A stretch of DNA of 64,000 nt, from NCBI GenBank assembly GCA_025361085.1, contig JANYAX010000012.1, positions 255 through 64,254 on the forward strand, given 5' to 3'. The notes beneath the pieces are model-generated. The model made no database searches. It was given only the letters and a program-made list of their open reading frames with translations, and was not told the origin of the DNA. This stretch comes from Candidatus Nomurabacteria bacterium (GTDB lineage: Bacteria; Patescibacteriota; Minisyncoccia; Phycocordibacterales; UBA9973). Shown piece by piece: positions 13,729 to 62,186 of the stretch. The translations under genes and the position numbers were made by a program. The stretch's first letter is position 1, and every line of letters begins with the position of its first letter.

Positions 13729-13737
13729 AAATATTTT

Positions 13738-17154: not shown

Positions 17155-17157
17155 AAA

Positions 17158-19032: not shown

Positions 19033-19050
19033 AAAATTTTTATATCACTA

Positions 19051-20826: not shown

Positions 20827-20873
20827 GTTAATTAATGCTAAACTATTTTATCTTTGTTGCTGTTTTTTACTTT

Positions 20874-21593: not shown

Positions 21594-21596
21594 AAA

Positions 21597-23000: not shown

Positions 23001-23002
23001 TT

Positions 23003-23797: not shown

Positions 23798-23798
23798 A

Positions 23799-37579: not shown

Positions 37580-38266
37580 TTATTTTATAACCGTTCCGAT
37601 AAAATCATCGCCATCTAGATATTTTTTCAAATTCCCTATTTTATTACCATTCAAAATCACAACTTCACTCCCATTAGATTCTGCTTCAAGAGCGGCCATT
37701 TGATCGAAGGGAACATTTTCTCCGGGAATCCATTTATTTCCAAAAATGTTTTTATAACCATCCCAAGACATTTTGTAAATTGCTTTTGCATCAGAGAATA
37801 TCCTGGGGTCTTTGTCACAAACAAAATCAATATTAGTAAGATTTATTATTTTTGTCGCACCGATACTTTTGGCCCCGTGAACAGCAGCGAGATCACTACT
37901 ATTCCCCGGTTTCCAGCCACAACCTATGATTATCGGTTTATCTGTTTCGGGAATATTGTCAGGATCTAGTACCACTTTCTCATATGCTAAATCACCAAAA
38001 CAAATTCGAATAAACTCGGCATTCAATCGTGTAACTGCAATTCCCATCCAATCCAAATCTTCATGTGAAGGTTCAACAATTTGTTTTAACGAATCATTAT
38101 ATTTGCGACATATTTTACCACCTCCAGTGATAAGCAAAAAACTATAACCTTTAGAAATATATTCTTGAGTTAATTTTAAAAAAGAATTAACAAAATCAAC
38201 ATCTATCTCATCTGGAATGATGAGCGAACCACCAAGTGACATTACAATTTGCTTTTTTTTGTCCAT
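37580..38266 (-). CDS. Amino-acid-kinase family protein, most like archaeal-type UMP kinase (PyrH) or isopentenyl-phosphate kinase
   Basis: 228 aa. VMSLGGSLI Gly-rich loop, ITGGGKICRKY. Confidence 0.5.
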   Translation of the reverse strand: MDKKKQIVMSLGGSLIIPDEIDVDFVNSFLKLTQEYISKGYSFLLITGGGKICRKYNDSLKQIVEPSHEDLDWMGIAVTRLNAEFIRICFGDLAYEKVVLDPDNIPETDKPIIIGCGWKPGNSSDLAAVHGAKSIGATKIINLTNIDFVCDKDPRIFSDAKAIYKMSWDGYKNIFGNKWIPGENVPFDQMAALEAESNGSEVVILNGNKIGNLKKYLDGDDFIGTVIK

Positions 38267-42959: not shown

Positions 42960-43133
42960 AAATTAAGGAATGAAATGACTATAATTTATGAGCATCCCGA
43001 CGTAAGGAGGGAGCCTTAAATTAAGGAATGAAATGACTATAATTTATGAGCATCCCGACGTAAGGAGGGAGCCATAAATTAAGGAATGAAATGACTATAA
43101 TTTACGAGCATCCCGACGTAAGGAGGGAGCCAT
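42960..43133. repeat. Tandem direct repeat, 3 x 58 bp, beginning at the rpsN start codon
   Basis: Unit AATTAAGGAATGAAATGACTATAATTTATGAGCATCCCGACGTAAGGAGGGAGCCNT at 42961, 43019 and 43077 with 1-2 mismatches. Contiguous, with no spacers. Confidence 0.85.
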
Positions 43134-43144
43134 AAATAAAATTA

Positions 43145-43212
43145 GCGAGTTTTCGGGAAAGGTTTTGCCTCTAAATGATCCCGAGGCAATTCCTTGAGGA
43201 GAAAACTCTCGC
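43145..43212 (-). promoter_or_regulatory. Conserved element copy B enclosed by an outer stem (GCGAGTTTTC … GAAAACTCTCGC)
   Basis: Core GGTTTTGCCTCTAAATGATCCCGAGGCAATTCCT is about 85% identical to copy A. Confidence 0.4.
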
Positions 43213-43395
43213 AAGTAGATATCTCGTTATTTTTCTTCTTATCCCTTCCCTAATCTTTTCAAGACGGGCAAAGAAGGAGAACAACGGATCAAAACTCACG
43301 TGTCCCTATACTAGCAAATCAGGTTAATATTGTCAAATTATTGTACGCGTCCACCACATATACCCTTCCTCTGTAACCCCTTATTTTCCAACCTT

Positions 43396-43427
43396 CTCCA
43401 GATAGTGGCAAGGCCACTATCTGGAGA
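43396..43427. repeat. Palindromic element copy 2 (TCTCCAGATAGTGGC-aagg-CCACTATCTGGAGA), in inverted orientation relative to copy 1
   Basis: Core CAGATAGTGGC…GCCACTATCTG shared with 9880-9912. Immediately downstream of the membrane-protein gene stop. Confidence 0.7.
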
Positions 43428-43436
43428 GCATTATAA

Positions 43437-43928
43437 TTATAGGGGTTTTTGGTATTTTTTTATTTGGTGTTCTCGCCAGATGAGCCAGAGGATTATGATA
43501 TCCATGACAGTTAAGACTATCAGCAAAATCGAATGGCCTTTGAAAATATGGTAAATTTGATAAATAATCAGACCTCCCAACCCTACGAGCGAAGCCGGGT
43601 AAGCCCAAGCTTTTCTTAAATATAACCCTGTAATGATTGCAACTTTTATAATTCCATGACTTAAAAGATAGTAGACGATAAATAACTTCCCTGTCGATGT
43701 TATATGATTAGCATTATTCACCAAGAAATTAGCAATGAAATTGTTGGGCTCTTCAATGAGCTCACTATGAGTTATAGTAACAAGGAAATTTATTATTCTG
43801 TTGGTACTGACAAAATACAAAAATAAAGCAGATACAACTTCAAGCGATGCTTGGATGAACTTGAGTAGCAAGCTCACATTGTAAGCGATGTAAATATTCT
43901 TTTCTTCCTTCGCCTTGGTCATGTGCAT
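43437..43928 (-). CDS. Small polytopic membrane protein (DUF2127-like), inserted within the spc ribosomal operon
   Basis: 163 aa, 4-5 TM helices. Located between rplE and rpsN, where no gene is normally found. Confidence 0.5.
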   Translation of the reverse strand: MHMTKAKEEKNIYIAYNVSLLLKFIQASLEVVSALFLYFVSTNRIINFLVTITHSELIEEPNNFIANFLVNNANHITSTGKLFIVYYLLSHGIIKVAIITGLYLRKAWAYPASLVGLGGLIIYQIYHIFKGHSILLIVLTVMDIIILWLIWREHQIKKYQKPL

Positions 43929-43997
43929 AGTGACATTATAACATTACAACAAAAAATAGCTCGAGACGAGCTATTTTTTGTCTTAATTTTTATTTGT

Positions 43998-45413: not shown

Positions 45414-45418
45414 AATAA

Positions 45419-46560: not shown

Positions 46561-47007
46561 TTATTCTTTAACTTCTGGCTTCACAACTTTTTTCGACTTT
46601 GCAACTTTTTTAACTTTTTCTTCAGTTTTAACTTCTTCTTTCTTTTCTACCTTTTTTTCTGATTTTTTAGCCTTATTTTCAAGGGTTTTTTCGATAAGAG
46701 TAAGCATAATATGACTTGTTCTCTTGTTTATACGTGAAGCTGAACCACGTGCTCTTGGCATACTACGCTTTAGAACAATACCTTTGTTAACTGTAATATT
46801 TTCTATAAATAAATTCTCAACAGAAACACCTGCCTGTTTTGCATTAGCAATAGCAGAATTCAATAATGTATTCACTGGGCCTGATGCTCTCTTTGGTAAT
46901 GTATCAAGAATAAGAAGAGCGTCGGCAACCCTTTTGCCTTTGATGAGTTCCGCTACAAGGCGAACCTTGCGGGGGGACTGTCTATAATTTTTTAGAAATG
47001 CTTTCAT
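46561..47007 (-). CDS. rplV: 50S ribosomal protein uL22 (Lys/Glu-rich C-terminal extension)
   Basis: L22 core with a KKEEVK repeat tail. Confidence 0.9.
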   Translation of the reverse strand: MKAFLKNYRQSPRKVRLVAELIKGKRVADALLILDTLPKRASGPVNTLLNSAIANAKQAGVSVENLFIENITVNKGIVLKRSMPRARGSASRINKRTSHIMLTLIEKTLENKAKKSEKKVEKKEEVKTEEKVKKVAKSKKVVKPEVKE

Positions 47008-47020
47008 AAGTTAGTTGTAA

Positions 47021-47365
47021 TTATTTTTTCTTTGAGTCAACCGCGGCCTTAGCGGATTTCGATGCAGTAATTTCGGCCTCTTTCTTCTTTATCTCTAATT
47101 CTTTCTGCATCTTACCTCCATGTCGGACGAACTTGCGTGTCAGTGAAAATTCTCCAAGTCTGTGCCCTACCATATCTTCGCTGACCAGAACCTCTACGTG
47201 AGTTTTACCATTGTGGACACCAAATACGAATCCAACCATTTCAGGAGAGATAACGCATGCACGTGACCAGGTTTTAATCATACCAGTCTCGAGTGGTTTC
47301 TTGCCGGCAATCTTTTTCAAGAGCCTTTCATCAACATATGGGCCTTTTTTAAGTGATCTTGTCAT
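47021..47365 (-). CDS. rpsS: 30S ribosomal protein uS19
   Basis: [18 protein letters not shown]…. Confidence 0.95.
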
Positions 47366-47444
47366 CTGATTATTTTAGTTTTGTAAATATAAATAAGCTC
47401 TTTTGAGCTCGTTCGTCTATACTATCAAATATAAAATAAAAGTC

Positions 47445-47476
47445 AAATCCCCAGAGATGATGGTCTCTGGGGATTT
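47445..47476. terminator. Terminator hairpin (AAATCCCCAGAGA…TCTCTGGGGATTT) between pyrD and rpsS
   Basis: 13-bp perfect stem. Confidence 0.65.
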
Positions 47477-47491
47477 ATGTTAGTTGTGTTT

Positions 47492-48511
47492 TTAATACCT
47501 TTTTCGAAAAAGAACTTTGGCCGTCAGAATAATAAACGGCAAATTCCATAAGCGCAAAGAAATGCATGATCCCAATGAAATAGCATTAGCTCCCGCTTTT
47601 TTGAATTGCCATACATTGTATGGGTTCATAATACCGCCACCACCAATTATCGGCTTCGTTATACCCATTCTCCTAGCTTCTCTTATCCATGCCAAGGCAT
47701 AAGGTCTGATCGGATGTCCGGACACACCTCCACGTCCTTTGATTAAAAACTGATCCTGATGTTTGTCGAGGGGAGAAACACGATGGCCGAATTGCTTATC
47801 TTTTTTGAAATATTTCTCCTTAACAAAATCGGGTAGTTCATTGAACAGGATTGTATTTATGGCAGTGAACCCATAAATGTATTTAAGCTCTTGCAACCGC
47901 AAAGCAACTTCAATCGGGAACTGCCACCCAACTTTAACGATAATGGGTAATTCGAGCTGTGAAAGAATCGCATACTCTGGGATAAAACTTTCCAAAAAAT
48001 TGGCAAGAGCATTATGCCCGGTGTTTGGACAAGAAATATTCCAATTCAAGAATATTTTAGAAGCAGAAAATTTATGAAGATTTTCTTTCAGAAGCAATAC
48101 GATAAGCCTTGCTTCCCCTGTTCTTTCCTCAGCAGTATCTCCCACTAACATTATTGAAAGATGAAGCTCTCCTTTTATTTTATAGAGCTTACCTTGTCTA
48201 AGGATGGGGCCCAATCCAGGACCGGAAAGTGAAAAGTTATTCACCATCCAGCCTTTCCAAAAATTTAACCCCACACACTTGGGGAACATCTTTTCAAGAG
48301 AGTAGCCATCCGAGGCAAGTTGCGCATTACCAATTCTTTTGGTCGCCGTCGAGGTTTTGGATTGAAATGTAACCCAATTCCGAAGAATTAGTCCAAACAA
48401 CCCAAGGGTCAGAATGTTCAGGAGAAGATAATGTTTATAACCCTCCCCCATAAAACCCAAGCTACCAGACGCAGCTATCACAGGTTTAGCAAAATAATGA
48501 TGTTTCTTCAT
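47492..48511 (-). CDS. pyrD: Dihydroorotate dehydrogenase-family TIM-barrel flavoenzyme (PyrD-like)
   Basis: NISCPNTG active-site loop, GGGGI phosphate-binding motif. Confidence 0.6.
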   Translation of the reverse strand: MKKHHYFAKPVIAASGSLGFMGEGYKHYLLLNILTLGLFGLILRNWVTFQSKTSTATKRIGNAQLASDGYSLEKMFPKCVGLNFWKGWMVNNFSLSGPGLGPILRQGKLYKIKGELHLSIMLVGDTAEERTGEARLIVLLLKENLHKFSASKIFLNWNISCPNTGHNALANFLESFIPEYAILSQLELPIIVKVGWQFPIEVALRLQELKYIYGFTAINTILFNELPDFVKEKYFKKDKQFGHRVSPLDKHQDQFLIKGRGGVSGHPIRPYALAWIREARRMGITKPIIGGGGIMNPYNVWQFKKAGANAISLGSCISLRLWNLPFIILTAKVLFRKRY

Positions 48512-48671
48512 GATTCTTTTTTATTAAGTTTTGTTTATTATTTCAATTAGTTCAATTAAGGAATACCACAAAATCACCAAAGTAGCAAATACTACTTTTG
48601 ACAAAAAATTATCAAGATGTAGTATAAGGAAAAACGAAAAATAATTTCTAAACTCTTTATAAATCAATACA

Positions 48672-49778
48672 ATGAAAAAATCATTTCAAATCTTGTTGCC
48701 TTTTGACAGGCACGGCCACTTGCGTGAAGTAAATACGCTTATGCCTGAAGTCCTGATTCATTCACTGAAAAGTTTTTGGGGTATGGTTGTTATGCCAAAT
48801 ACTGCTATCCCAATTACTGATTATGAATCTGCAGTGCGTTATCGTGAAGAAATAAAAACCCTAAGCAATAAGTATGGGTTTGGGGGGAATTTCCTTCCGG
48901 TCATGACTGGCTACCTGACCGACAATACAAATCCGGAAAATGTAAAGAGCGGATTTCTAAATGGTGCATGGAAAGCCATGAAACTCTATCCACACGGTGC
49001 GACAACAAACTCCGACAAAGGTGTTACTAAACTGGAAAAAATATTTCCGGTATTAGAAATGATGCAAAAAATCGGAATGTCGGTGCTTGTTCATCCAGAA
49101 ACAGATGTTTCAAGGAGCGATATTCCATTCATGGACAGAGAGCGCGTATACACAGAAGAGTCATTGTTTTTAATCCATGAACGTTTTCCTGAATTAACCA
49201 TTTCGGTTGAACACATTTCAACCCGAGAAGCCATGGAATTTGTTGAGTGGTGTCCAGATAATGTTGTTGGAACAATAACTCCGCAACATATCATGTATAC
49301 ACATGATGCACTTTTCCATAATGGAGTCCCCCCGTTTAAACCAGGGCTCTACCCTGAGAATATGTGCTTGCCGATACTAAAAACACAGGATGATGTAAAT
49401 TACATCCGAAATGCCATCATGCACGGAGAGAGAAGATACAAATTCGGAGCTGGGACAGATACTGCACCTCACACCCAAACAGCAAAGAAAGAAAACTGTA
49501 GCAGATGTGGGGTGTTCAATGCCTCACACGCCGTTGAGTTCTACACCATGATCTTTGACCAGGAAGGGATGCTAAACGATGAGAAAGGAATTCAAACTTT
49601 CCAAAACTTTATGTCCGTAAACAATTTATGGATTTATGGAATTAAAGAATTTCCAACTGAAATGATCACTCTGGTAAAAGAAGATCAGCAAATCCCTGAA
49701 ATTTATCCGGGAGACATTCGACCTTTCAAAGCCGGTCAGACTATCCCTTGGACAATGAAAAGGGAGTTGATTAAATAA
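48672..49778 (+). CDS. pyrC: Dihydroorotase (amidohydrolase family)
   Basis: FDRHGHLRE metal-binding motif, VMPNT motif, additional His ligands. Confidence 0.7.
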   Translation: MKKSFQILLPFDRHGHLREVNTLMPEVLIHSLKSFWGMVVMPNTAIPITDYESAVRYREEIKTLSNKYGFGGNFLPVMTGYLTDNTNPENVKSGFLNGAWKAMKLYPHGATTNSDKGVTKLEKIFPVLEMMQKIGMSVLVHPETDVSRSDIPFMDRERVYTEESLFLIHERFPELTISVEHISTREAMEFVEWCPDNVVGTITPQHIMYTHDALFHNGVPPFKPGLYPENMCLPILKTQDDVNYIRNAIMHGERRYKFGAGTDTAPHTQTAKKENCSRCGVFNASHAVEFYTMIFDQEGMLNDEKGIQTFQNFMSVNNLWIYGIKEFPTEMITLVKEDQQIPEIYPGDIRPFKAGQTIPWTMKRELIK

Positions 49779-49799
49779 AATTGATTAAAAAACCTATAA

Positions 49800-49832
49800 A
49801 GAACCCCGCGAACACTGCGGGGTTTTCATTTG
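49800..49832 (+). terminator. Rho-independent terminator (AACCCCGCGAACACTGCGGGGTT + T-rich)
   Basis: Hairpin after the pyrC stop. Confidence 0.65.
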
Positions 49833-49892
49833 GCTTAATTTGACAAAAACCTGTGAAAATATAAGATGTGGGAAAACTAATCCTTAAAAAAT

Positions 49893-50624
49893 ATGGTTCC
49901 AGAAGAAAGATTTAATTCGAAAGAAATCAGCAAAGCGATAGCTTTGGCTGGGTTAAAGATCGGGGCAGTTAAAATAAGACCAGAGGATCCCTTTTTGTGG
50001 GCATCGGGTACTTATAACCCGATCTACAATGACAATCGGAGGTTTTTGTTTTATCCGGCATATCGCGAACTCATTACAAATGGGTTTGCCGAAATTATTT
50101 ACAAATTGGGTTTACATACAAATCCTAATTTAGTAATCGCTGGTACTTCAACCGCAGGGATTCCCCATGGATCCGCCCTTGCTACAAAACTTCACGTCCC
50201 CTTTATCTACATCCGGGATAAGCCGAAGGATCATGGACTCAAAAACCAAATCGAGGGAATTGATGTGGACGAAGATCTCAAAGGTTATCACGTCGTATTA
50301 ATCGAGGACTTAATTTCGACAGGGGGCAGTAGTGTCGCTGCAATTGCTGCAATACGAAACGCCAGCGGTTCCTGCAACTTATGTCTTTCGATTTTTAATT
50401 ACGGATTACCGAACCCCCCAAAAATGTTTAATGGAGATATCCCTTATAACGAAAAGGGAGATCGGCTACAAAGCCCCTGTGAAATAACTTCTTTACTTTA
50501 CTATCCTAAGCTGATATCCATAGGGATAGAAAAAGGATTAGTGAGTAAAAATCACGAGAAAACATTACTAGAGTGGATGAGTAATCAACCACACTGGGGT
50601 GAAAATCACGGATTCGTCCGATAA
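49893..50624 (+). CDS. pyrE: Orotate phosphoribosyltransferase (type I PRTase)
   Basis: PRPP-binding motif VVLIEDLISTGGS. Confidence 0.7.
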   Translation: MVPEERFNSKEISKAIALAGLKIGAVKIRPEDPFLWASGTYNPIYNDNRRFLFYPAYRELITNGFAEIIYKLGLHTNPNLVIAGTSTAGIPHGSALATKLHVPFIYIRDKPKDHGLKNQIEGIDVDEDLKGYHVVLIEDLISTGGSSVAAIAAIRNASGSCNLCLSIFNYGLPNPPKMFNGDIPYNEKGDRLQSPCEITSLLYYPKLISIGIEKGLVSKNHEKTLLEWMSNQPHWGENHGFVR

Positions 50625-50666
50625 AAAAAGAGCGCGCAGATACAATCTTGCGCGCTTTGTTTTTTC
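50624..50666. terminator. Bidirectional terminator (AGCGCGCA … TGCGCGCT flanked by A-run and T-run) between convergent pyrE and pyrF
   Basis: Hairpin with flanking A-run and T-run. Confidence 0.7.
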
Positions 50667-50674
50667 CTTCAGAA

Positions 50675-51460
50675 TTACTTTTCAATTTCTGCCATTGTCA
50701 ATCGGCAACTTTCTTCGGCACCTATACCAAGTTGCAAATTGCCTTTGGTTAATTGAGCTCCCATGACAACAAAAGTAGCTCCTAGATCAAGAGCTTCTCG
50801 GACTCCTGTTGTTCGTTTTTGGTGTTCGCCGGCCTTTTCCATCCATTTATCACGGATACCTGGGACAACAAAACCGCAACCAGCATAACAATTGAGATGA
50901 AGCATTGAAAGCTCGTGAGCTGAACATACAACCAGATCGTATGGCTCGGGGTTAATGTCTTTCTCAAATTTGATCTTCTTTTGATAGAATGAACGAAGCC
51001 GATCAATGTCAGAATAAATCTTATCAGCTGGGGTCATTCCAAAACGATCGACACATTCATCTTCACTTATATCAGTCGGTAGTGAGACCATCGCCAATTT
51101 GGTATTTGGCAATAACTTCCGAAGTTCAATGATGCCGGCGACGCTACATCCTGAAGATACAGTCAGGATGTTGGCTGGTGTATTTAAGTATTTTCTTAAT
51201 ACATTTACCAATGTGGCCGAAACATCGAAAATCTTTAAATCCAGGAAAAATCCGATCGGTAAACCTTTCCCTTTTAGACACTGCACAATCTCTTCGACGA
51301 TTTGTGGACCACCCAGATCCAAGTTGTGAACTCCGTCATTCAGTTTGATGTGAGAAATGATGTCCGTTAGACCTTTTATGTTTAGTGTCTTTTCAAGGGC
51401 ACCAAACAATGCGGCGGCTGTGGCATAGCCGTCGAGAGGAAGAATTGCTACTCTTTTCAT
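50675..51460 (-). CDS. pyrF: Orotidine-5'-phosphate decarboxylase
   Basis: DLKIFD (DxKxxD) catalytic motif. TIM-barrel length. Confidence 0.65.
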   Translation of the reverse strand: MKRVAILPLDGYATAAALFGALEKTLNIKGLTDIISHIKLNDGVHNLDLGGPQIVEEIVQCLKGKGLPIGFFLDLKIFDVSATLVNVLRKYLNTPANILTVSSGCSVAGIIELRKLLPNTKLAMVSLPTDISEDECVDRFGMTPADKIYSDIDRLRSFYQKKIKFEKDINPEPYDLVVCSAHELSMLHLNCYAGCGFVVPGIRDKWMEKAGEHQKRTTGVREALDLGATFVVMGAQLTKGNLQLGIGAEESCRLTMAEIEK

Positions 51461-51541
51461 AATAAATTGATTAATTTTAAATAACTAGATTTTTATTAGT
51501 TCAACCCTATTACAACTAATTAACTGTCTGAAAACAAAATG

Positions 51542-51772
51542 TTAACAAATTAAAATAGTGTACCGACAGTTTTGTTGATACCACATTTGTCTTAACCGTC
51601 GTATCTTCCTACGAGAAAAAAATCTGAAATCGCCATAGAACGCATATTCATTCCATTTGCGACGAAGTTCTTTTTTGAAAGATTTTTTACTCCCAAAAAA
51701 GACAAGAAGCTTTTCTGAGTTGTCACTCAATCCAAGGTTCTTATTCCGGATATTAGATAACAATTTCATCAT
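51542..51772 (-). CDS. Small basic hypothetical protein (76 aa)
   Basis: ORF only. No recognisable motifs. Confidence 0.2.
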   Translation of the reverse strand: MMKLLSNIRNKNLGLSDNSEKLLVFFGSKKSFKKELRRKWNEYAFYGDFRFFSRRKIRRLRQMWYQQNCRYTILIC

Positions 51773-51894
51773 TTAATATCGTCTTCTAAATTTTTTCATT
51801 TTCAAGATTTTAAGTTAAATTTATCTTAACATTATTCTTTTTCCCCTTTTTGTCAAATAGAAAATGGGCCATAACGACCCATTAACTTAAAATT

Positions 51895-52116
51895 TTACCC
51901 AACTGATCTGCCAAAATTACTAAAACTAAAACTCCGCATCCTCTTCTGCAACCTCAGAACGACTTCTACTAAGTGTTCATAGGCAATCCTTTGCGATTCA
52001 TAATCGCCATTCGGAAAAGGATTTTCATCAAGATATTTCCTAAGTTCGAGTTGAAGATCCTCTTCTTCTTTTCTATTTCTTGCGTGCATTTTTGCGACGC
52101 TTTCTTGTGTTGCCAT
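51895..52116 (-). CDS. Small hypothetical protein (73 aa)
   Basis: ORF only. Charged helical composition. Confidence 0.25.
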   Translation of the reverse strand: MATQESVAKMHARNRKEEEDLQLELRKYLDENPFPNGDYESQRIAYEHLVEVVLRLQKRMRSFSFSNFGRSVG

Positions 52117-52232
52117 TTTGTGAAAAATTAATAATTTTATTTGATACTACAATTATCAGTAATTTAAGTCAAATAAACAACTGTAACACTTACAAACGGC
52201 CGTTGCTATCTGTTACAAAAATCATGTACATC

Positions 52233-52258
52233 AAAAAACTCCCCGAAGGGAGTTTTTT
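52233..52258. terminator. Bidirectional terminator (AAAAAACTCCC-cgaa-GGGAGTTTTTT) downstream of rplB
   Basis: Perfect stem with an A-run and a T-run. Confidence 0.7.
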
Positions 52259-52346
52259 GATGATAGAATTTTTGTTGTTATTAAGACTTCTTTGTTTTTC
52301 CTCTGCCTGCGCAAGCGGGCAACCTTTTGGCAAAAATAATTTTTCT

Positions 52347-53198
52347 CTACTTATTATTTTTAGTTTTACCGACACGTCTTCGACTGACAATCCACATGTT
52401 TGAATACTTCTTTGGTGTTCTTGTTTTTTGGCCTTTTCCTGTTGGTTTACCCCACATACTTTTGGCTCGGCGTAGTCCGCGTCCTTGGCGTCCTTCACCT
52501 CCACCGTGTGGGTGATCAACTGGGTTCATCGCAGTACCACGAACAGTTGGGCGAATACCCTTCCAACGTGAGCGTCCTGCTTTCCCAAAATTTTGAAGTT
52601 TATATTCACTATTTGAAACTTCTCCAATAGAAGCCCAAGCATTTTCTTGAACTTTTCTGACTTCAGTTGATGGCATTTTGATATTGGTATAACCAAGATC
52701 ATTTGCGACAACTTGTCCGAACGTTCCAGCCGAGCGTGCGAGCTTGCCACCATTGCCTGGTTTGATTTCAATATTGTAAACAAATGTTCCAATTGGAATT
52801 ATTCGAAGTGGTAATCTGTTCCCAATTGTAAGAGGAGCTTTTTCTGAAACGATGAAAATATCTCCAACTTTCATTGACTTAGGGACGATAACGTATCTTT
52901 TCTCTCCATCGGCGTAACAAGCAAGACTGATGAATGCATTACGATTTGGATCATACTCAATTGAAGTTATCTTCGCAGGGATATCATGCTTGTTGTACAT
53001 GAAATCTATCTCACGATAAAGACGCTTGTGACCACCCCCTTTGTGGCGAGTAGTGATACGCCCTTGATTATTTCTTCCAACTGAACGTTTGAAACCTTTT
53101 GTTAAAGATTTCTCCGGAGTACCTTTGGTCAATACATTTCTGTAAGTGACAGTAGTCTGGTGACGTTTTGCTGGACTTGTAGGTCTATATGTTTTCAT
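52347..53198 (-). CDS. rplB: 50S ribosomal protein uL2
   Basis: 283 aa, typical L2. Confidence 0.95.
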   Translation of the reverse strand: MKTYRPTSPAKRHQTTVTYRNVLTKGTPEKSLTKGFKRSVGRNNQGRITTRHKGGGHKRLYREIDFMYNKHDIPAKITSIEYDPNRNAFISLACYADGEKRYVIVPKSMKVGDIFIVSEKAPLTIGNRLPLRIIPIGTFVYNIEIKPGNGGKLARSAGTFGQVVANDLGYTNIKMPSTEVRKVQENAWASIGEVSNSEYKLQNFGKAGRSRWKGIRPTVRGTAMNPVDHPHGGGEGRQGRGLRRAKSMWGKPTGKGQKTRTPKKYSNMWIVSRRRVGKTKNNK

Positions 53199-53210
53199 AA
53201 TTTATATTGT

Positions 53211-53251
53211 CCACATGTCGGACTTGTGTTTCCCACAAGTCCGACATGTGG
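53211..53251. promoter_or_regulatory. Perfect 18-bp-stem hairpin (CCACATGTCGGACTTGTG-tttcc-CACAAGTCCGACATGTGG) in the rplW-rplB intercistronic region
   Basis: Read directly. Lies between the rplW stop (53258) and the rplB start (53198). Confidence 0.6.
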
Positions 53252-53257
53252 TCTATT

Positions 53258-53587
53258 CTATGCAAATACTATTTTATCTCCTTTCTTCAAATGTACGACC
53301 GCTTTCTTCCCTCCTTGTTTGATACTTACAATTCCACGACGAGTAACGGTTTTCTTCGCAATTTGTGTAACTGCAACTCGAACTGGCATAACCCCATAAA
53401 CCAACTTGATGGCTTTTTTAATTTCATTCTTGTTAGCGCTTTGAGCTACGTTGAAAGTATAAACCCCTTTCTCTGCGTTGATAGCAGATTTTTCGGTGAC
53501 ACGTGCACCTTTTAGAAGTGGATGAGTTTTCTCTTTCTTTGTGTCTACTTTCTCTTCTTTATTCTTTTTTGTTTTTGTTGTTGCCAT
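53258..53587 (-). CDS. rplW: 50S ribosomal protein uL23
   Basis: L23 core with a Lys-rich N-terminus. Confidence 0.85.
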   Translation of the reverse strand: MATTKTKKNKEEKVDTKKEKTHPLLKGARVTEKSAINAEKGVYTFNVAQSANKNEIKKAIKLVYGVMPVRVAVTQIAKKTVTRRGIVSIKQGGKKAVVHLKKGDKIVFA

Positions 53588-55462: not shown

Positions 55463-56659
55463 TTATTTGTTGATTTTTGTTACGACACCTGCGCCGACTG
55501 TTTTACCACCTTCACGGATAGCAAAGTGCATTTGTTCTTCAAGCGCAACTGGGGTTACAAGTTTAACACCTAGCTTAACTGTATCTCCTGGCATAACCAT
55601 TTCTACACCAGCTGGAAGAGTTGTGTCTCCTGTAACGTCTGTTGTACGAATGTAGAATTGAGGTTTGTATCCAGTAAAGAATGGGGTGTGACGTCCGCCT
55701 TCTTCTTTCTTCAAAATGTAAACTTCACATTCGAATTCTGAATGAGGAGTAACTGTTCCTGGTTTAACAAGAACTTGTCCACGAGTAACATCTTCTTTCT
55801 TAATTCCGCGGATAAGGATACCGGCGTTGTCGCCTGCCATACCTTCTTTCAAATTTTTATTGAACATTTCGATACCAGTGACTGTTGTCTTTGCTGTATC
55901 TTTAATACCAACAATTTCAACATCTTCACCAACTTTCACAATTCCGCGTTCAATTTTACCAGTAACAACTGTTCCACGTCCTTCGATAGAAAAGATATCT
56001 TCGATAGGCATTAGGAATGGTTTTGTGATATCGCGTTCTGGAACTGGAATATATGTATCGAGAGCGTTGACCAATTCAAGAATATTTTTAGCGTATGGGT
56101 CAGAATTATCTTTTGATTCAAGCGCCTTCAAAGCTGATCCACGGATAACTGGAGCTTGTCCATCAAAGCCTTGTTTTACAAGGAGTTCACGGACTTCTTC
56201 TTCGACGAGGTCAAGCATGTCGGGGTCATCAACCATGTCGCATTTGTTTAAGAAAACGATAATTTTAGGAACGTTAACTTGCTTTGCAAGAAGGATGTGC
56301 TCACGTGTCTGTGGCATAACTCCATCTGTCGCAGCGACAACGATAACAGCACCATCCATTTGGGCAGCACCAGTAATCATGTTCTTAATATAGTCAGCGT
56401 GTCCTGGAGCATCAATGTGTGCGTAGTGACGTGTTGGTGTCCAATATTCGTTGTGAGAAAGAGCAATCGTGATACCACGAGCTTTTTCTTCTGGAGCTGA
56501 GTCGATTTGATCAACACCTTTAATTTTGGCTCCATATCCTTCACCTTGACGTGCCAAAATTGCTAAAATAGCCGCAGTTAATGTGGTTTTCCCGTGGTCG
56601 ACGTGACCAATAGTACCAACGTTAACGTGAGGCTTATCTCTGTTAAATTCTTCTGCCAT
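55463..56659 (-). CDS. tuf: Elongation factor Tu
   Basis: [18 protein letters not shown] motifs. 398 aa. Confidence 0.97.
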
Positions 56660-56840: not shown

Positions 56841-59800
56841 CTATCTTTCTTTTATTATGAGATCAATGACCTTCGTCTTAATTTCTTTAGTGCCTGTTCC
56901 GGTACTATTGTTACATTTTAGGGTATAAGTAGTATTAACTTTAGGAGAAACCTTCACAGGAGGGATGTCATTACTGTCAGTTCTACCTTGAGTATTTACA
57001 ACCTCACCAGCAGTCGAACTGGTTATTGAACAAGAATCGGCAATTGTCGATTTCCAAATAAGAGTTGATACCCCCCCTTGGAAAATCGTTTCTGGATCTG
57101 CGGTAAACGTAAATATATCATCACCTCCACCAGGAAGATTTAGTTTGCATTTTGCTCCATCCCAAGTCGTATTATTTGCACAAGTTGCCGTCGTGTTAAT
57201 AGTCTTCACTAATTGTCCTCCGCTGTAAAGATTGAGTATTTTGTTCTCTAAGTGAGAAATATCGAATGAGGCTGTTCCAGAAACTGCTGGGGTAGAATTA
57301 ACCACAGTTAAGTTTCCAGGATTTGCAGTGAGAGATGAATTCCCAATAGGGTTCGTTACAGACCAACTGAGTCCAGCCGTGCAACTACTATGATCTGCTA
57401 TTATAGAACACCCCGGAGTAGAGATTTCACCAGAAGGCACAACACATTTACTTCCATCCCAGAAAGTTTGAACTGGGGTGTTTGTACATGTTGCATTCAC
57501 AGTCTTTTCATCTAATTTAACTCCATTATGATAGAGGAAGAATGTTCTACCTCCATACTCGACAGCGTAGCTAACCCCTATGGTGTTTGTATTTGCAGGT
57601 GTTCCGATAGTAATATTTGTTGGAGTAGTAACCGAAGAAGTTGCCGTTGCTAAAGGATATAGTGTTTGCCATTTTATCGTCGAGGAACAACTACTTTCCC
57701 CGGCTCCGATTTCACAAGAACTTGGAGTAGTTGTGACAATCCCACTCGGAGTCGTACATTTCATATTCGTAGAATCCCAAGTTGAAAGTGAATCACACGT
57801 TGCCGTTACTACTTGAGATTGAGACAATAATACAACATTATGATAAAGGTAGAATGTTGTTGAACCAAAATTAATTGCATTTGGAACATTTGTACCAGAG
57901 GTTAAAGCAGATATGGTTGTTCCAATTGGATTATTTTTTGTAACAGCGGTAGGGTTAGCAGTCAGATTCGCAGTTGTCCAATTTAATGTTGAATTACATG
58001 TACTTGCTCCAGCTGTGATAATACATGAGGTTGCCGATATATTCCCCGTTGGCTTCAATGTAAATGTTGCTGTACAAATTTTATTTGCATTCATTGTTAC
58101 TTGCCCACTTGCATTACAATCACCACTCCAGCTTACGAAAGTTGAACTTGCATCAGGTGTTGCTGTAGCAGTAACCGGGGTATTGTAATTAAATGAAGTC
58201 GAACATGTTGCTCCACAATTAATTCCAGCAGGATTCGAAGTTACTGTTCCTGTCCCTGATCCTATTTTGGAGATAGTTAGAGTATAAGAATCTATTACAC
58301 ACTTTGTGCCATCCCAATGATTATTAGCGGCACAATTTGTATTTACCGTTGCCTGAGCGAGCAAAACAGAATTGTTGTAAAGATTGAAGATCACACCAGA
58401 AACATTGTAAGGAGCAGTAAATGTTTGAGAACCAGAATTCCCGTTTGCTGGACTTGGTGTCCCCGTTGCGCTAGTCACAGCTGATGTTCCGATTGGATTT
58501 GTTGTCGTCCATGACAAGGTTGGAGTTGTACAACTACTTGCACCTGTTGCAATCGTACAAGTTGATGATGCTGGAGTTAGTGTCCCTGTCATTTGAATAA
58601 ATGTGGCACTGACAGTACAGTTAGATGTGATTGTTCCTGTTGTATATATTGTTCCAGAAAGTGAACCGGCACAACCTGAGGCTGAAGCAATGTATCCAGA
58701 ATTTGGAGTAACAGTAAATGTTGTTGTTGAACCATAATTTACAGTTCTTGTTGCAGGAGAAATTGTTCCACCGGTGCCAGCAGTTCCTGAGACAGTGTAG
58801 TTAGAAGGTACACATTTTAAGGTATCCCACACCGTCCCACTCACACAACTTGCATTTGCTGTTGCTTGGGCAAGTAAAACACTGTTGTAAAGATAAAATG
58901 TTCGAGAACCATAAGCAACGGTGTAAGTTGTAGAACCAGAGTTTCCATTTGCAACAGTAATACTTGTAGGAGTTGTGACTTGAGATGTTGCCTTGGGATT
59001 TGAAGTACTCCAATTTAATGTTGAGCTACAACTACTTGCACCTGATGCGATCGTACAATCTGAAGCGGTGATAGATCCTGATGACCCGACAGTGACAGTT
59101 GTTGAAGCACTTCCACTTGTACTATTTAATCCAGTACATGAGAGAGTAAATGTTGTATCTGCTGTTAATGCTCCTGTCGAAACACTACCTGATGTTCCCT
59201 TTGATCCTGACCATCCACCACTTGCTGTACATGATGTAGCATTTGTTGATGACCAAGTAAGAGTTGAGGAATCATTGTAAGCTATACTTGTTGGACTTGC
59301 AGTTAGAGTGACAGAGAGGGGTGCGCATTTTAACCCATCCCAAGTTGTCCCACTCACACAACTTGCATTTGCTGTTGCTTGAGAGAGAAGAACGGAATTG
59401 TTGTAGAGATATAGATTTCTAGAACTATAATATACAGTGACTGATTGATTCGTACCTGAGTTCCCAGAATAAACCGTGAAATTTGGAGTTGATACATTAC
59501 TATTATTCACATCACTTGTTATAGCAGATGTTCCGATTGGGTTTGTTGTTGTCCAAGTTATATTTGAAGTACAGTTATTTGACCCTGAAACAATAACACA
59601 ATTAGGAGCGGTTAATGACCCGTACATAAATGTGGCAGTAACAGTACAATCTGCAGTTATTGCGCCAGTAGTGTAAGTATTCCCTGAAAGTGACCCGCTA
59701 CAACCTGTAACAGATTTTATTGCACTATTTGTATTTGGAGTAACAGTAAATGTTGTTGTACCTCCATAGTTTACAGTTCTTGTTGCAGGAGAGATTGTTC

Positions 59801-62186
59801 CACCTGCGCCAGCTGTTCCAGTAACAGTATATGAATTAACTACAAAATTGGCTGTAACTGTATTAGCTGAAGTCATGACAACAGTACATGTTCCTGTACC
59901 AGAACAACCCCCACCACTCCAACCAGAAAATGTCGAACCTGTTGATGGTGATGCCGTGAGAGTAACCGAAGTATTATAATTAAATGCAGTTGAACAAGTT
60001 GCTCCACAATTAATTCCAGCAGGATTCGAAGTTACTGTTCCAGAACCGGTGCCAGCTTTGGTAACAGTGAGAGAATATGTATTAATTGTAAATGTTGCGG
60101 TACAAGTTTTTGAAGCATTCATTGTTACTGAACCATCTGTACAATCGGCATCACCACTCCAACCAGAAAATATTGAACCTGTACTTGCCGAAGCTGTCAT
60201 ATTCACAACTGTCCCAGAGTTATAGGTTCCAGCTCCAGTAACAGTTCCCGAGCCAGTACCTGCTTTATTTATCGTGAGAGTATAAGTTGGTAATGTTGTG
60301 AAAGTCCCCTGACTCGAATACCCTGGTCCTGGTACATTTGAAGCAAAACCAAAATAGTAATACAAAGTATTTGGTGATAAACCTGAAATGTTTAGAGAAT
60401 ATGTTCCTGTTATAGAACATGTAGTAGAACCACTATAAGTCGAAGGATTCGGTGAAATCCCCCAATAAAACCCACAATAAGGAGCAACAAGAGTAGCAGG
60501 AAATCCGAGCGAAGTGATATTCGCTCCTAGAGTTGCAGTTGTCGAAGTAATATTTGTTGCTGTTGGACTCGTAACAGTAGGAACTACATTGGGAGAAACA
60601 CAAGTCGAAGTTGCGCTATTCCAAACTGTTCCAGATGCACAAGAAACTGTGATACCTAAAGTGGCAAGCGTATTATCTACAGCTCCTCCATTATTTTCTC
60701 CATCAACTTTGTTAATTGAGGAAAGAGTTGTCGAACCGCTGTTGGCTCCATTGGTAATGATCCCACTTCCACTCAAGGTAAGACCTGTTCCTGAATTGCC
60801 CGTCGTTATAGCAGAGCCTCCTATTTTCAATGCAGTCGGAACTCCAGAATATGGGTTAGTTGTATCCCATGCTAAAGTTGACATCGAGCAACTCCCCGCC
60901 CCTGACGCAATAGTGCAAGAAGATCCACCACCTCCTGGAATGAGTATTCCTGATTGACCGAAAACAGTGACTACTGGAGAAGTTGCATTATCACAAATTA
61001 ATCGGAAATTATTAGTATTATCATTTATGGATACATTGGCTCTATTGCCAGGAGTATCTTGGGTGTATGTCTTAACCAAAGATCCATTTTTTTCCAAAGA
61101 ACAATTTTTACCTGATGGAAGTCCTGAGATTACAGCATACAAATATGTGTCTGAAAGAGGAGTTCCTTTCCCCACTGCCACTAAATCTTTCGTTGGATCT
61201 GAAAGAAGTCCTAAAGAAATTGAAATAGAAGGAGAAAATGTTGCAGTTACCGTACAATTAGCATTTATGGCTCCAGTTGTATATGTATTACCTGATAATG
61301 ATCCACTGCAACCTGTGACTGATGAAATGCTGTATCCTGAATCAGGAGTAACGGTGAAATAAGTTGTGTAACCTGGTGTAACAGATCTAGAAGATGGAGA
61401 AATAGAACCTCCTGAACCAGCAGTAGCCGTTACAGTATAAAGACTAGAAGAAACACATTGATTTGATCCATTATCCCAATATGAACCAGCCATGCAATAA
61501 GCATGTGCAGTTTTAGAATCGAGTTGAATACCATTATGATAAAGTCGATAATTCACCCCACCAGAAGCTTGAGAAATATATTCTAAAACTGACCCTGAGG
61601 TAGATGTGCCAATTACGTTATAACCAATATTAGGATAATTCATTCTGTCCATTTCGACAGAACTTGTCGCATTGTAAACATTCCAGCTAACGGTAGAATA
61701 ACAACCAAACTCTCCTATATCCATATAACAATCTGAAGCATTAATGGAACCAGAAACAGGACCAGGGCCACCTCCGCCCCCAACAGTAACAGTTATACTA
61801 CTAGAAGACTGTGTATACAAAGAAGCTGTACAAGTTACCGTAAAAGTCGTAGTTTTTAATATGTTAAAATTCTGTGAACTTACCCCATTACCTTGTGCCG
61901 CAAATGCAATTTTCGTCTTAAACCAATCAAATAAATTTTTATTATAATTATCGAGATTAACTCCTACAACAGGGGCTCCATCACTAGAAGCTGATGCTGT
62001 ACAGGTAGCAGTAGCTGGAGTAACATTCCAAGAGATAGTCACTGTTCCTCCTCCAGAAGGAAGGGGAGATGGCGGCGATGCTGTAAGACTATTGAAAGTA
62101 ATAGCCGCAGCCTCTACTCCTCTTGCAAAAAAAATTGAGCATAAAAACAAAATGGAAAGAAGAGATATTTGTAATACTTTTTTCAT
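56841..62186 (-). CDS. Giant secreted/surface protein (1781 aa) with a signal peptide and multiple divergent InlB B-repeat (Flg_new-like) domains plus Ser/Thr/Gly-rich Ig-like repeats
   Basis: Signal peptide [26 protein letters not shown]. Repeated [27 protein letters not shown]…FSGWSG…C…VTATF units. Cys pairs throughout. About 90-aa C-terminal domain shared with the neighbouring gene. Confidence 0.8.

Follow-up and report, generated by a model that had tools for sequence, protein, structure and literature searches.

Do the pyrimidine genes that lie between rplB and rpsS, in the middle of a ribosomal S10 operon, mark a recent insertion or an arrangement that the lineage has inherited? The question is raised by the window, the 64,000-nucleotide stretch of DNA analysed here, whose source is a Paceibacteria-type CPR bacterium. 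The gene order on its minus strand is tuf-rpsJ-rplC-rplD-rplW-rplB, a gap, and rpsS-rplV-rpsC-rplP-rpsQ-rplN-rplX-rplE. The ORF calls and Pfam matches for rplB (L2; 52347-53198, minus strand; Ribosomal_L2_N, E 1e-34, and L2_C, E 3e-50) and rpsS (S19; 47021-47365, minus strand; Ribosomal_S19, E 1e-32) place the two genes 4981 bp apart (47366-52346), in agreement with the 5 kb given in the preliminary description of this DNA. In the gap, pyrD, pyrC, pyrE and pyrF are accompanied by two orphan ORFs and four terminators. Because the sequences come from metagenome assemblies, and one contig at NCBI begins inside the gap, unrelated fragments might be suspected of having been joined during assembly or binning. 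Nevertheless, an NCBI MAG contig (GCA_043723505.1) and two Logan assemblies, independent and made from different runs, have the identical order rpsS-pyrD-pyrC-pyrE-pyrF-orf-orf-rplB, and more than 10 other samples show analogous arrangements, which makes this explanation practically negligible. As set out below, the rplB/rpsS slot with its pyr genes is best seen as an inherited trait of the lineage and not as a fresh insertion.

At the transcriptional level, all promoters, terminators and transcription units described here are read from sequence only. A putative intrinsic terminator follows rplB (52229-52262, minus strand; inverted repeat, RNAfold -21.6 kcal/mol). Its 15-nt arms are perfectly complementary and are flanked by an A-tract and a T-tract, so that it should be able to act both ways, and a strong terminator of the same type lies 3' of rplB in nearly all clade relatives. 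On the other side of the gap, rpsS has a dedicated predicted promoter (47419-47446, minus strand; TTGACT-N16-TAGTAT with an extended TG), and a TTGACW-N16/17-TAGTAT promoter is found upstream of rpsS in 21/21 clade loci. Beginning 8 nt past the -10 element, a leader hairpin (47395-47410, minus strand; GAGCUC-AAAA-GAGCUU) is followed by a U-rich tract. At least 16 of 20 relatives keep this architecture, where shuffled sequences would give 0.8, and the stems covary, taking 11 different sequences. Thus, rplB would be the last gene of an upstream transcription unit (tuf/rpsJ...rplB) and rpsS the first of a downstream unit, rpsS-rplV-rpsC-rplP-rpsQ-rplN-rplX-rplE; the terminator 3' of rplB and the promoter 5' of rpsS agree with the earlier proposal that the S10 operon is split into separate units. 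Within the gap, a 14-bp bidirectional terminator after pyrD (47444-47477) adjoins the -35 element of the rpsS promoter, and the terminator scan places one with an 11-bp stem after pyrC (49800-49826, plus strand) and another, with an 11-bp stem and 6 GC pairs, shared by the convergent pyrE and pyrF (50629-50658). The four terminators correspond to those first reported at 47445, 49800, 50624 and 52233. Promoter-like sites precede pyrC (48598-48625, plus strand) and pyrE (49840-49867, plus strand).

The age of the break can be judged from other genomes. All of the 20+ relatives whose RplB is at least 64% identical have rplB and rpsS separated: the gap measures between 164 nt and 8.1 kb, or else no rpsS lies within at least 0.9 kb. 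By contrast, in about 60 non-clade genomes, other CPR included, the gap is at most 270 nt and typically below 20 nt, which supports the initial statement that the two genes are adjacent elsewhere. The break is also present in relatives whose gap lacks pyr genes, where the cargo of outer relatives consists of MazEF, a MazE/ParE-like pair, DUF5674, unknown ORFs, and an IS200-like Y1 transposase with a PKD/CARDB protein. Since every clade relative is split and the other genomes have the two genes abutting, the S10 break between rplB and rpsS is lineage-wide and older than its cargo. The synteny comparison that the preliminary description had proposed therefore goes largely against its own reading, as the interrupted arrangement is typical of the lineage. 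A recent horizontal insertion, in which a foreign 5-kb pyr cassette broke the intact S10 operon of this particular genome, could draw on the closest genome-collection relative, L001 (RplB 89% identical), whose gap has no pyr genes. However, the break and the rpsS promoter and leader occur in all clade relatives, and the rplB terminator in nearly all, pyr-less ones included; the claim that the module was inserted into an intact operon is not supported on this point.

Regarding the cargo itself, profile matches and intact catalytic residues bear out the four pyr genes and two tiny ORFs listed at the outset. pyrD (47492-48511, minus strand; Pfam DHO_dh, 50 bits) encodes a divergent class-1-like dihydroorotate dehydrogenase (DHOD) of "type A". 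The product keeps the class-1 catalytic set (K52, N91, N158, C161, N163, K193 and N219), which is invariant across the members of its small family, and the catalytic Cys of its NISCPN motif lines up with DHODB; its AlphaFold model has a pLDDT of 91.8 and the top 50 PDB fold matches are all DHODs. pyrC (48672-49778, plus strand) encodes a class II (homodimeric, E. coli-type) dihydroorotase, scoring 276.6 bits against TIGR00856 (cutoff 293), in which the candidate metal-ligand residues H14, H16, K104, H141 and D263 are invariant within the PyrC clade. About 27 homologues, 53-74% identical, make up this tight clade, and the next relatives, in Proteobacteria, are at 39-42%. pyrE (49893-50624, plus strand; NF001729, 126 bits; TIGR00336, 95.7 bits; Pfam Pribosyltran) encodes a PRK00455-type orotate phosphoribosyltransferase (OPRT) with homologues at 60-73% identity in related CPR and at 50-55% in DPANN archaea. 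pyrF (50675-51460, minus strand) encodes a type-1-like OMP decarboxylase with 26.7 bits to Pfam OMPdecase (cutoff 27) and 53.5 bits to PRK00230. Within its own family, the DxKxxD motif (D74/K76/D79), PGIR, R203 and Q214 are all invariant, and PDB matches to OMP decarboxylases align with the DLKxxD and PGIR motifs. The family is small and CPR-restricted, with only 37 homologues found. All four enzymes score below curated equivalog cutoffs and are therefore divergent, although the identifications hold; judged by profile matches, catalytic residues and predicted fold, they look functional. Of the two orphan ORFs, orf76 (51542-51772, minus strand) lies upstream of pyrF, with which it is possibly co-transcribed, and orf73 (51895-52116, minus strand) has a promoter-like site (52172-52144) and a terminator-like hairpin (51883-51863). 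Neither has a match in Pfam or NCBIfam, or a tblastn homologue in any fetched related locus; orf73 is predicted as a gene in independent assemblies too.

At least 11 independent loci of the window's subclade (L081, L084, L162/163, L164, L165/166, L167, L170, L173, L086, L087 and the window) have late-pyrimidine genes in the rplB/rpsS slot, and in 8 of them a diacylglycerol kinase (DAGK) gene adjoins rplB. A PyrC tree agrees at resolved nodes with a tree of 13 concatenated r-proteins; both are simple NJ trees of 8-12 taxa that carry no support values. Each has L164 and L081 as sisters, groups the window with L162 and places L084 deeper. This congruence indicates vertical inheritance of pyrC. 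The other members are mosaic. The slot DHOD may be of type A, type A' or a class-1A-like type, the OMP decarboxylase of type 1 or pyrF_sub2, and the OPRT of PRK00455 type, of pyrE_Therm type or part of a pyrF-pyrE fusion, and such differences occur between genomes whose RplB is 86-92% identical. The best match of the window pyrF among the fetched slot loci, in L162, is only 28% identical, and its nearest homologues (63%) sit outside the slot in other CPR, so that pyrF, at least, did arrive laterally after the subclade diverged. Hence, horizontal transfer finds support in the DHOD, OPRT and OMP decarboxylase families that differ between close relatives, but not as a recent arrival of the whole module. 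Reduced versions exist as well: the slots of L170 and L173 keep pyrE and pyrF only and that of L001 keeps DAGK only, although most relatives are short metagenomic contigs, so that "loss" from the slot could be relocation in the genome, and L082 does have pyrD-pyrC outside the slot.

These data also bear on recent insertion of the whole cassette. It could appeal to the best homologues of the window pyrF and pyrE, which belong to other CPR or DPANN lineages, to the proteobacterial nearest outgroup of the PyrC clade, and to GC3, which is somewhat raised in the pyr genes (0.37-0.39, against about 0.28 in most other genes). This last feature, by which all four genes consistently exceed their neighbours, could reflect a later whole-module exchange with a related lineage. 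Nonetheless, pyr genes hold the same slot in the related loci, the PyrC tree follows the r-protein tree, and no integrase, tRNA or flanking repeats were found in the gap region. Composition of the 47.4-52.3 kb segment, by codon position and tetranucleotides, deviates mildly and with no strong anomaly; its tetranucleotide correlation with the whole window (r = 0.949; typical values 0.95-0.98) stays inside the window's range. In addition, r-protein genes of the slot-bearing contigs are only about 50-65% identical at third codon positions, which argues against these contigs being one recombining population instead of diverged lineages. A recent insertion is consequently very improbable, and the horizontal acquisition first suggested finds no support as a recent event in this genome, given the slot loci, the PyrC tree, the mild deviation and the lack of mobile elements.

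A different possibility is that the extremely conserved flanks rplB and rpsS and, internally, pyrC and DAGK serve as homology arms through which related lineages swap whole sub-cassettes, much as at capsule or O-antigen loci. In fact, the variable segments fall precisely between conserved anchors, with the DHOD between rpsS and pyrC, and the OPRT and OMP decarboxylase between pyrC and DAGK/rplB. Contigs often stop exactly at the slot (L003, L007, L174), which hints at strain-level heterogeneity, and in groundwater Patescibacteria horizontal transfer and genomic islands that include translation genes are reported (PMC12455944). Against this, no pair of loci carries near-identical cargo in otherwise diverged backgrounds, and the nucleotide identity of the flanks (about 80-88% for rpsS) matches that of other r-protein genes, so that no trace of recent exchange is seen. 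At less than 35% identity, the replacement genes are very distant, and their ultimate donors are therefore not close relatives. Exchange anchored in this way is possible but rather unlikely.

The surroundings of the module are also rich in nucleotide genes. A ten-gene purine operon (13738-26774, minus strand; Pfam) has the order purL-purQ-purF-purN, an unknown 591-aa ORF, and purD-purE-purM-purC-purB; ndk, for nucleoside diphosphate kinase, lies at 33429-33944 (minus strand; Pfam NDK, E 4e-37), and an archaeal-type UMP kinase gene, pyrH (37580-38266, minus strand; Pfam AA_kinase; TIGR02076 pyrH_arch, 152 bits), sits between adk and map and encodes the step after the pyr module. The clustering of nucleotide genes pointed out earlier thus stands, with the pur operon, ndk, pyrH, adk and the pyr module all within 64 kb; pyrB and carAB were not found within this window. 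Nucleotide genes might be kept within or beside r-protein clusters through selection for growth-rate-coupled expression or high dosage, in which case the functional theme would survive gene replacement. The theme does persist although the DHOD, OPRT and OMP decarboxylase genes are non-orthologous between relatives, and translation clusters harbour further nucleotide genes: besides pyrH and the neighbouring pur operon, ndk and adk here, L084 has purA and guaB in the slot and purB, purO and purH beside rplJL, and L082 has pyrD-pyrC, along with thyA, folA, dcd, tmk and nrdAB, next to secE-nusG-rplK. On the other hand, the pyr genes are in mixed orientation and each is insulated by its own promoter and terminator, which speaks against co-transcription with r-protein genes; the outer clade fills the slot with toxin-antitoxin pairs and a transposase, as expected of a merely permissive site; and part or all of the module is gone from several relatives. 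Selected co-localisation is therefore a tentative idea that we regard as doubtful.

The explanation that we favour, and consider quite probable, is an ancestral S10 break used as a variable slot and holding a mosaic late-pyrimidine module whose function persists. Long ago, the lineage would have divided the S10 operon between rplB and rpsS, so that it forms two transcription units, and the spacer would have become a slot whose genes vary. The cargo of the subclade would have come to comprise DHOD, dihydroorotase, OPRT and OMP decarboxylase, plus diacylglycerol kinase in most relatives. Judging from the conserved signals, transcription of tuf/rpsJ...rplB would end at the A/T-flanked hairpin, and rpsS...rplE would be read from its own promoter through the short conserved leader hairpin, while the pyr genes would be expressed as separate small units parted by terminators. 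The predicted chemistry leads from carbamoyl-aspartate to dihydroorotate, orotate, OMP and UMP, and the nearby pyrH and ndk would carry UMP to UDP and UTP. Within the subclade, pyrC was probably inherited vertically, the DHOD, OPRT and OMP-decarboxylase genes would have been replaced at their positions by distant versions, and some relatives may have lost one half of the module or the whole of it.

This arrangement resembles several known systems in part. The canonical S10-spc-alpha supercluster carries the non-ribosomal passengers secY, adk, map and infA. Here, ribosomal gene order is canonical on either side of the gap and secY, adk and map are passengers, in the window with pyrH as well; unlike the canonical cluster, the clade has a terminator/promoter pair and variable cargo of 0.2-8 kb interrupting its rplB-rpsS junction, rpmC is absent between rplP and rpsQ, and there is a second variable slot between rplE and rpsN. 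In the Bacillus-type pyr operon, pyrR-P-B-C-AA-AB-K-D-F-E is controlled by PyrR attenuation. The late genes pyrC, pyrD, pyrF and pyrE are clustered in both cases, but the window module has no pyrR, pyrB, carAB or pyrK, its genes point in different directions and each has signals of its own for starting and ending transcription, its dihydroorotase is of class II (E. coli-type), and its DHOD is a divergent Cys-type enzyme without a PyrK partner. Variable cassette loci, such as pneumococcal cps between dexB and aliA or the E. coli O-antigen locus between galF and gnd, share with the slot a highly variable cargo at a fixed chromosomal position with strongly conserved flanking genes. They differ in that the pyr slot gives no evidence of recent homologous exchange, its cargo is central metabolism instead of surface polysaccharide, and the divergence between its carriers is that of genera or families instead of strains. 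Finally, mosaic operons, as outlined by Omelchenko and colleagues in Genome Biology in 2003, reportedly involve xenologous gene displacement in situ, a concept that papers citing this work treat as established. Like them, the slot keeps its neighbourhood function while members are replaced at the same position by distant homologues or analogues, in this case DHOD, OPRT and OMP decarboxylase around a vertical PyrC; in contrast to them, the genes are not co-transcribed but independently signalled within an inter-operon spacer of a ribosomal cluster, and replacement is combined with stepwise loss.

On the minus strand of the window, the S10 cluster and its neighbours run in the order tuf (55463-56659), rpsJ, rplC, rplD, rplW, rplB (52347-53198), a gap of 4981 bp, rpsS (47021-47365), rplV, rpsC, rplP, rpsQ, rplN, rplX and rplE. 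A preliminary description had placed four pyr genes and two small ORFs between rplB and rpsS, and this observation was confirmed by the ORF listing together with Pfam/NCBIfam scans. The gap, hereafter the slot, contains a DHO_dh-family ORF (pyrD-like; 47492-48511, minus), a class II dihydroorotase gene (pyrC; 48672-49778, plus; 277 bits with TIGR00856), the orotate phosphoribosyltransferase (OPRT) gene pyrE (49893-50624, plus), an OMP-decarboxylase-like ORF (pyrF; 50675-51460, minus) and the small ORFs orf76 (51542-51772, minus) and orf73 (51895-52116, minus). Hairpin terminators lie at 47444-47477, 49800-49826, 50629-50658 and 52229-52262, all four where they had been reported, and promoter-like sites of the TTGACW-N16/17-TAGTAT type precede rpsS, orf73, pyrC, pyrE and tuf. 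The canonical contiguity of rplB and rpsS is therefore lost, with the whole slot, a strong terminator 3' of rplB and a dedicated predicted promoter 5' of rpsS between them. The same order of slot genes was recovered in the NCBI MAG contig GCA_043723505.1 and in two sequencing runs assembled independently, which rules out an assembly artefact.

Apart from this gap, the canonical S10 gene order is kept in the window except for the absence of rpmC, the rplP-rpsQ spacer being only 5 nt long (45414-45418); no L29 gene was found by tblastn within the 64-kb window. Among the related loci fetched for comparison (numbered with L, mostly short metagenomic contigs), rpmC is also absent from this junction in every locus spanning it within the subclade formed by the window and its close relatives (L001, L081, L084, L162, L164, L170, L173), and it occupies its canonical place in the outer relatives L002-L014. 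Two further features of the cluster are worth describing. The 59-nt rplW-rplB spacer of the window is filled by a near-perfect hairpin with 23-bp arms (53206-53256), not followed by a T-run, present as a single copy in the window and absent from the relatives, whose spacer measures 4-10 nt. The hairpin may serve in processing or stability, or in controlling the translation of rplB. Immediately upstream of tuf, in the place normally taken by rpsL, rpsG and fusA of the str operon, stands a gene for a 1781-aa protein with Flg_new_2 (InlB B-repeat-like) domains (56841-62186, minus), in the region with the most deviant tetranucleotide profile of the window (r = 0.70-0.73).

The history of the break was addressed by using RplB as the query in a scan of a genome collection and by mapping the window proteins onto 80 fetched loci. 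The RplB scan places the window in Paceibacteria-type CPR, with labelled neighbours including Kaiserbacteria, Zambryskiibacteriota, Paceibacterota and Minisyncoccia. In all loci whose RplB is at least 64% identical, rplB and rpsS are apart, by 164 nt to 8.1 kb, or rpsS is absent from the remaining sequence of at least 0.9 kb; in all of the approximately 60 loci with RplB identity of 56% or less, other CPR included, the gap is at most 270 nt and usually below 20 nt. Nearly all loci of the separated group carry a strong A-tract/stem/T-tract terminator 3' of rplB, and a TTGACW-N16/17-TAGTAT promoter precedes rpsS in 21 out of 21. Since the break and the rpsS promoter are kept in all separated loci, and the terminator in nearly all, comparative evidence dates the predicted division of the S10 operon into two transcription units back to the common ancestor of the clade, and the pyr genes were not its cause. 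It had been claimed that insertion of these genes split the operon; the synteny of the 80 loci does not sustain that claim, as the split was already ancestral. Several contigs end at or inside the slot (L003, 2 nt past rplB; L174, which starts 8 nt before the end of pyrD; L007; L004), a hint that the slot varies between strains and thereby interrupts assemblies. A second variable slot was observed in the spc cluster, between rplE and rpsN/rpsH (42960-43997 in the window, rplE-rpsN; 3840-5193 in L162, 1818-4645 in L164 and 3797-6507 in L173). In the window it holds a DUF2127 membrane protein gene (43437-43928) with its own promoter and terminators, and in relatives a cyclodipeptide synthase with an NYN nuclease, a NUDIX protein with an NTP-transferase, or small ORFs.

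The predicted rpsS promoter and leader of the window (47395-47446, minus) have a characteristic architecture, in which a hairpin of 4-7 bp lies about 8 nt past the -10 element and is followed by a U-rich tract. The same promoter, hairpin and U-tract are present in L001-L014, L081, L084, L086, L087, L162, L164, L167, L170 and L173. Leaders were scored with a script for the occurrence of a hairpin plus U-tract against shuffles and not with a covariance model, because MAFFT alignments put the hairpins out of register; the architecture was found in at least 16 of 20 leaders versus 0.8 ± 0.9 in the shuffles. The stems fall into 11 sequence variants in which pairing is kept, so that structure and not sequence is conserved. 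Rfam gave nothing at gathering threshold in the window, and only sub-threshold chance matches in 46900-53400. The leader hairpin could be an attenuator or insulator, an autoregulatory site for r-proteins or a 5' stabiliser of the mRNA. A similar hairpin-plus-U leader was seen at the tuf promoter (56830-56803).

As all four pyrimidine enzymes score below the curated equivalog cutoffs, each was checked singly. PyrC reaches 276.6 bits with pyrC_dimer TIGR00856 (cutoff 292.95), covering positions 3-341 of the 341 in the model, and H14, H16, K104, H141 and D263, invariant across its clade, correspond to the HxH, Lys, His and Asp predicted for the binuclear metal site. PyrE obtains 126 bits with NF001729 (cutoff 245), 95.7 bits with TIGR00336 (cutoff 106.8) and 38 bits with Pfam Pribosyltran, above the cutoff of the latter; OPRT models are clearly the best-scoring phosphoribosyltransferase family, and its closest relatives are found in CPR (60-73% identity) and DPANN archaea (50-55%). 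The pyrF product falls just short of the Pfam OMPdecase cutoff (26.7 versus 27 bits) and belongs to a small CPR family, with 37 homologues found. It conserves D74-x-K76-x-x-D79, K39, D10, PGIR203 and Q214, of which DxKxxD, PGIR and Gln214 are invariant in the family. The Arg of the canonical phosphate-binding "GR" is replaced in this family by an invariant GAQ236 (Gly-Ala-Gln for Gly-Arg), a family-specific change at the predicted phosphodianion site.

For the pyrD product, scores far under the equivalog cutoffs indicate a divergent subfamily of dihydroorotate dehydrogenase (DHOD). Its NISCPN loop, with the catalytic Cys, and its C-terminal FMN-phosphate motif align with L. lactis DHODB. An exhaustive search retrieved just 660 cluster representatives at E <= 1e-3 among 1.84 billion, which makes the family small and distinct; within it K52, N91, C161, N163, K193 and N219 are invariant and N158 nearly so, a spacing that we take to fit the class 1 catalytic constellation (L. 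lactis DHODA numbering). The AlphaFold model has a pLDDT of 91.8 and its top 50 PDB matches are all DHODs (probability 1.00, TM 0.57-0.69). The TIM-barrel fold, the catalytic Cys loop and the FMN/orotate Lys and Asn residues of class 1 DHODs are thus all found in this protein. Sub-threshold HMM scores could also mean that the pyrD-like and pyrF-like ORFs are pseudogenes or misnamed, a reading that was rejected in view of the catalytic residues, the family-wide purifying conservation and the fold match. The four products are accordingly accepted as divergent members of their predicted families. The window DHOD, designated type A, has Cys as catalytic base, and its first strand is followed by a hydrophobic insertion of two helices (residues ~26-46); type A may constitute an undescribed DHOD subclass. 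No carA, carB or pyrB was found among the window ORFs or in the 10-kb flanks of the related loci.

Slot contents were read from the contigs that encode members of the PyrC clade and the closest PyrE homologues. The complete late-pyrimidine set (DHOD, pyrC, OPRT and OMP decarboxylase, OMPdc) is present in L162/L163, with a diacylglycerol kinase (DAGK) gene and a small ORF; in L164, with DAGK; and in L084, preceded by a further ORF and followed by purA and guaB (13300-16153). L167 has DHOD, pyrC and a fused pyrF-pyrE. DHOD and pyrC are accompanied by an additional ORF and DAGK in L081, and by an Asp/Glu-racemase-family gene adjoining pyrC (2264-3037 in L165) and DAGK in L165/L166. In L170 and L173 there are pyrE, pyrF and DAGK, along with DUF559 or small ORFs, respectively, and the slot of L001 contains DAGK only. 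On the short contigs L086 and L087 pyrC adjoins rpsS, with DHOD lying between them in L087. The presence of purA and guaB in L084 and of the racemase-family gene in L165/L166 points to a wider nucleotide-metabolism theme. The pyrD-pyrC pair was found outside the slot only in L082/L083, beside secE-nusG-rplK and with thyA, folA, dcd, tmk, glyA and nrdAB nearby. In the window the DAGK position is occupied by two orphan ORFs, orf73 and orf76; they were considered as DAGK remnants, and this was rejected because a DAGK tblastn was empty across the window. In the outer relatives (RplB 64-73% identical) the cargo is heterogeneous and often selfish, comprising MazE/MazF, a MazE/ParE-like pair, DUF5674, ORFs of no assigned family and, in L014, an IS200-like Y1 transposase beside a 1007-aa PKD/CARDB protein.

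The individual genes appear to have followed different paths. PyrC forms a tight clade of approximately 27 homologues at 53-74% identity, beyond which come class II dihydroorotases of Proteobacteria at 39-42%. A metagenome contig scan with the clade alignment added only three short clade contigs (L085-L087), the others being proteobacterial-type dihydroorotases 30-40% identical. Neighbour-joining trees of 13 concatenated r-proteins and of PyrC agree at resolvable nodes: in both, L164 and L081 are sisters, the window groups with L162 and L084 is deeper, the PyrC outgroup being Proteobacteria. Identity to the window declines in roughly the same order for PyrC (54-74%) as for RplB (72-92%), a pattern consistent with pyrC having been passed down vertically within the slot from the ancestor of the subclade. 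The horizontal acquisition suggested in the preliminary description hence finds no support for pyrC in the congruent trees, and the interpretation given there stands only in part. The remaining enzymes occur as several types. Type A DHODs, in the window, L162, L167 and L082, are mutually 55-70% identical; L081 has a type A' (32-35% to type A), and L164, L084 and L165 a class-1A-like type, so that the sister lineages L164 and L081 differ in DHOD type. OMPdc type 1 is found in the window and L162, with just 28% mutual identity, and pyrF_sub2 in L164, L084 and L167, which the OMPdecase genes of L170 and L173 (~300 aa) seem to resemble. The window pyrF type also occurs in other CPR, outside the slot. 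OPRT is of the PRK00455 type in the window, L170, L084 and probably L173, of the pyrE_Therm type in L162 and L164, and fused in L167. As judged from these gene comparisons, the pattern is one of in-situ gene displacement with the function of the neighbourhood maintained, together with stepwise loss from four genes to pyrE/pyrF only and then to none.

Composition gives a modest signal. GC3 is mildly but consistently elevated in the pyr module (0.37-0.39 versus ~0.28 in most other genes), and by tetranucleotide profile it correlates with the window at r = 0.949, a value inside the range seen across the window, where most 5-kb segments give 0.95-0.98. Pfam/NCBIfam detected no integrase or transposase in the gap of the window, there is no tRNA nearby, and the repeat search returned chance-level repeats only, with none bounding the module. 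A mobile element or genomic island in the window slot was rejected on these grounds, the compositional shift being mild. At third codon positions, the r-protein genes of the window and of its nearest relatives are just ~50-65% identical, which makes these diverged lineages. Nucleotide and third-position identities in the slot flanks are no higher than in other r-protein genes and lend no support to recent recombination there. It is conceivable, and we regard it as rather unlikely, that the rplB|rpsS spacer is a dedicated exchange locus with a persistent theme, where ultra-conserved r-protein genes, pyrC and DAGK serve as anchors for recombination by which these bacteria with reduced genomes repeatedly exchange, improve or drop nucleotide-biosynthesis cassettes, and where the rpsS hairpin is a new cis-element (attenuator/insulator or 5' stabiliser) that keeps r-protein expression independent of the cargo.

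At the level of sequence, terminator and promoter signals are present and conserved, the leader hairpin is conserved and the catalytic motifs appear intact. On this basis, transcription of tuf/rpsJ through rplB would end at 52229-52262 and that of rpsS through rplE would begin at the promoter 47446-47419. The pyr genes would form separate small transcription units, with pyrD and pyrC divergent and pyrE and pyrF convergent on one common terminator, and orf76 possibly co-transcribed with pyrF. The four enzymes would convert carbamoyl-aspartate to UMP, which pyrH and ndk would take to UTP; the stretch at 33.4-38.9 kb contains both of these, the pyrH being archaeal-type, together with adk. With a Cys base and no PyrK partner, and in a host probably devoid of respiratory quinones, the DHOD would most likely use a soluble electron acceptor such as fumarate.

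Other genes of the neighbourhood also deserve mention. The UMP kinase gene (37580-38266, minus) is inserted in the tail of the spc operon, with adk and map on either side. It belongs to the archaeal type (152 bits with TIGR02076 versus 37 bits with the bacterial model), and L081 carries a counterpart, 56% identical, in the corresponding place downstream of adk. Between ndk and map, within the extended translation/nucleotide neighbourhood, sits a gene for a 913-aa TraG/TrwB-like type IV coupling-protein homologue (34026-36767, minus). The ten-gene purine operon (13738-26774) includes an ORF of 591 aa (19051-20826, minus), flanked by purN and purD and with no Pfam/NCBIfam match. In Bacillus-type purine operons purH occupies the matching position, and for this reason the ORF may be an unrecognised analogue of AICAR transformylase/IMP cyclohydrolase.

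CPR bacteria are commonly described as devoid of nucleotide biosynthesis, for instance in the introduction of a study of groundwater Patescibacteria (PMC12455944). That work, on the same kind of MAG set, also reported genomic islands and horizontal gene transfer involving translation genes (PMC12455944). Unlike the usual description of CPR, the lineage studied here retains a purine operon and a late-pyrimidine module. The states of its relatives are consistent with erosion of the module, from four genes to pyrE and pyrF only, compatible with orotate salvage, and then to none. The slot offers a clean natural case of a metabolic function that keeps its place in the genome even as its genes are swapped for distant versions. 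To our knowledge, rplB-rpsS is among the most conserved prokaryotic gene adjacencies and is near-universal, and CPR phylogenomics and binning are built on the syntenic block of 16 r-proteins that includes it. A clade-wide predicted transcriptional break with 0.2-8 kb of variable cargo would account for contigs often ending at rplB-rpsS, and it bears on the extraction of marker blocks. Passenger genes in the ribosomal supercluster are a classical feature, the concepts of mosaic operons and of xenologous displacement in situ are established, and surface-polysaccharide loci hold variable cassettes between conserved flanks. No earlier account of a break between rplB and rpsS, or of pyr genes lying within the CPR S10 cluster, was found in the searchable literature. 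What is new here with respect to those systems is the position and behaviour of the locus: a clade-wide rplB|rpsS break with a dedicated promoter and leader, and a pyrimidine theme that outlasts the turnover of its genes.
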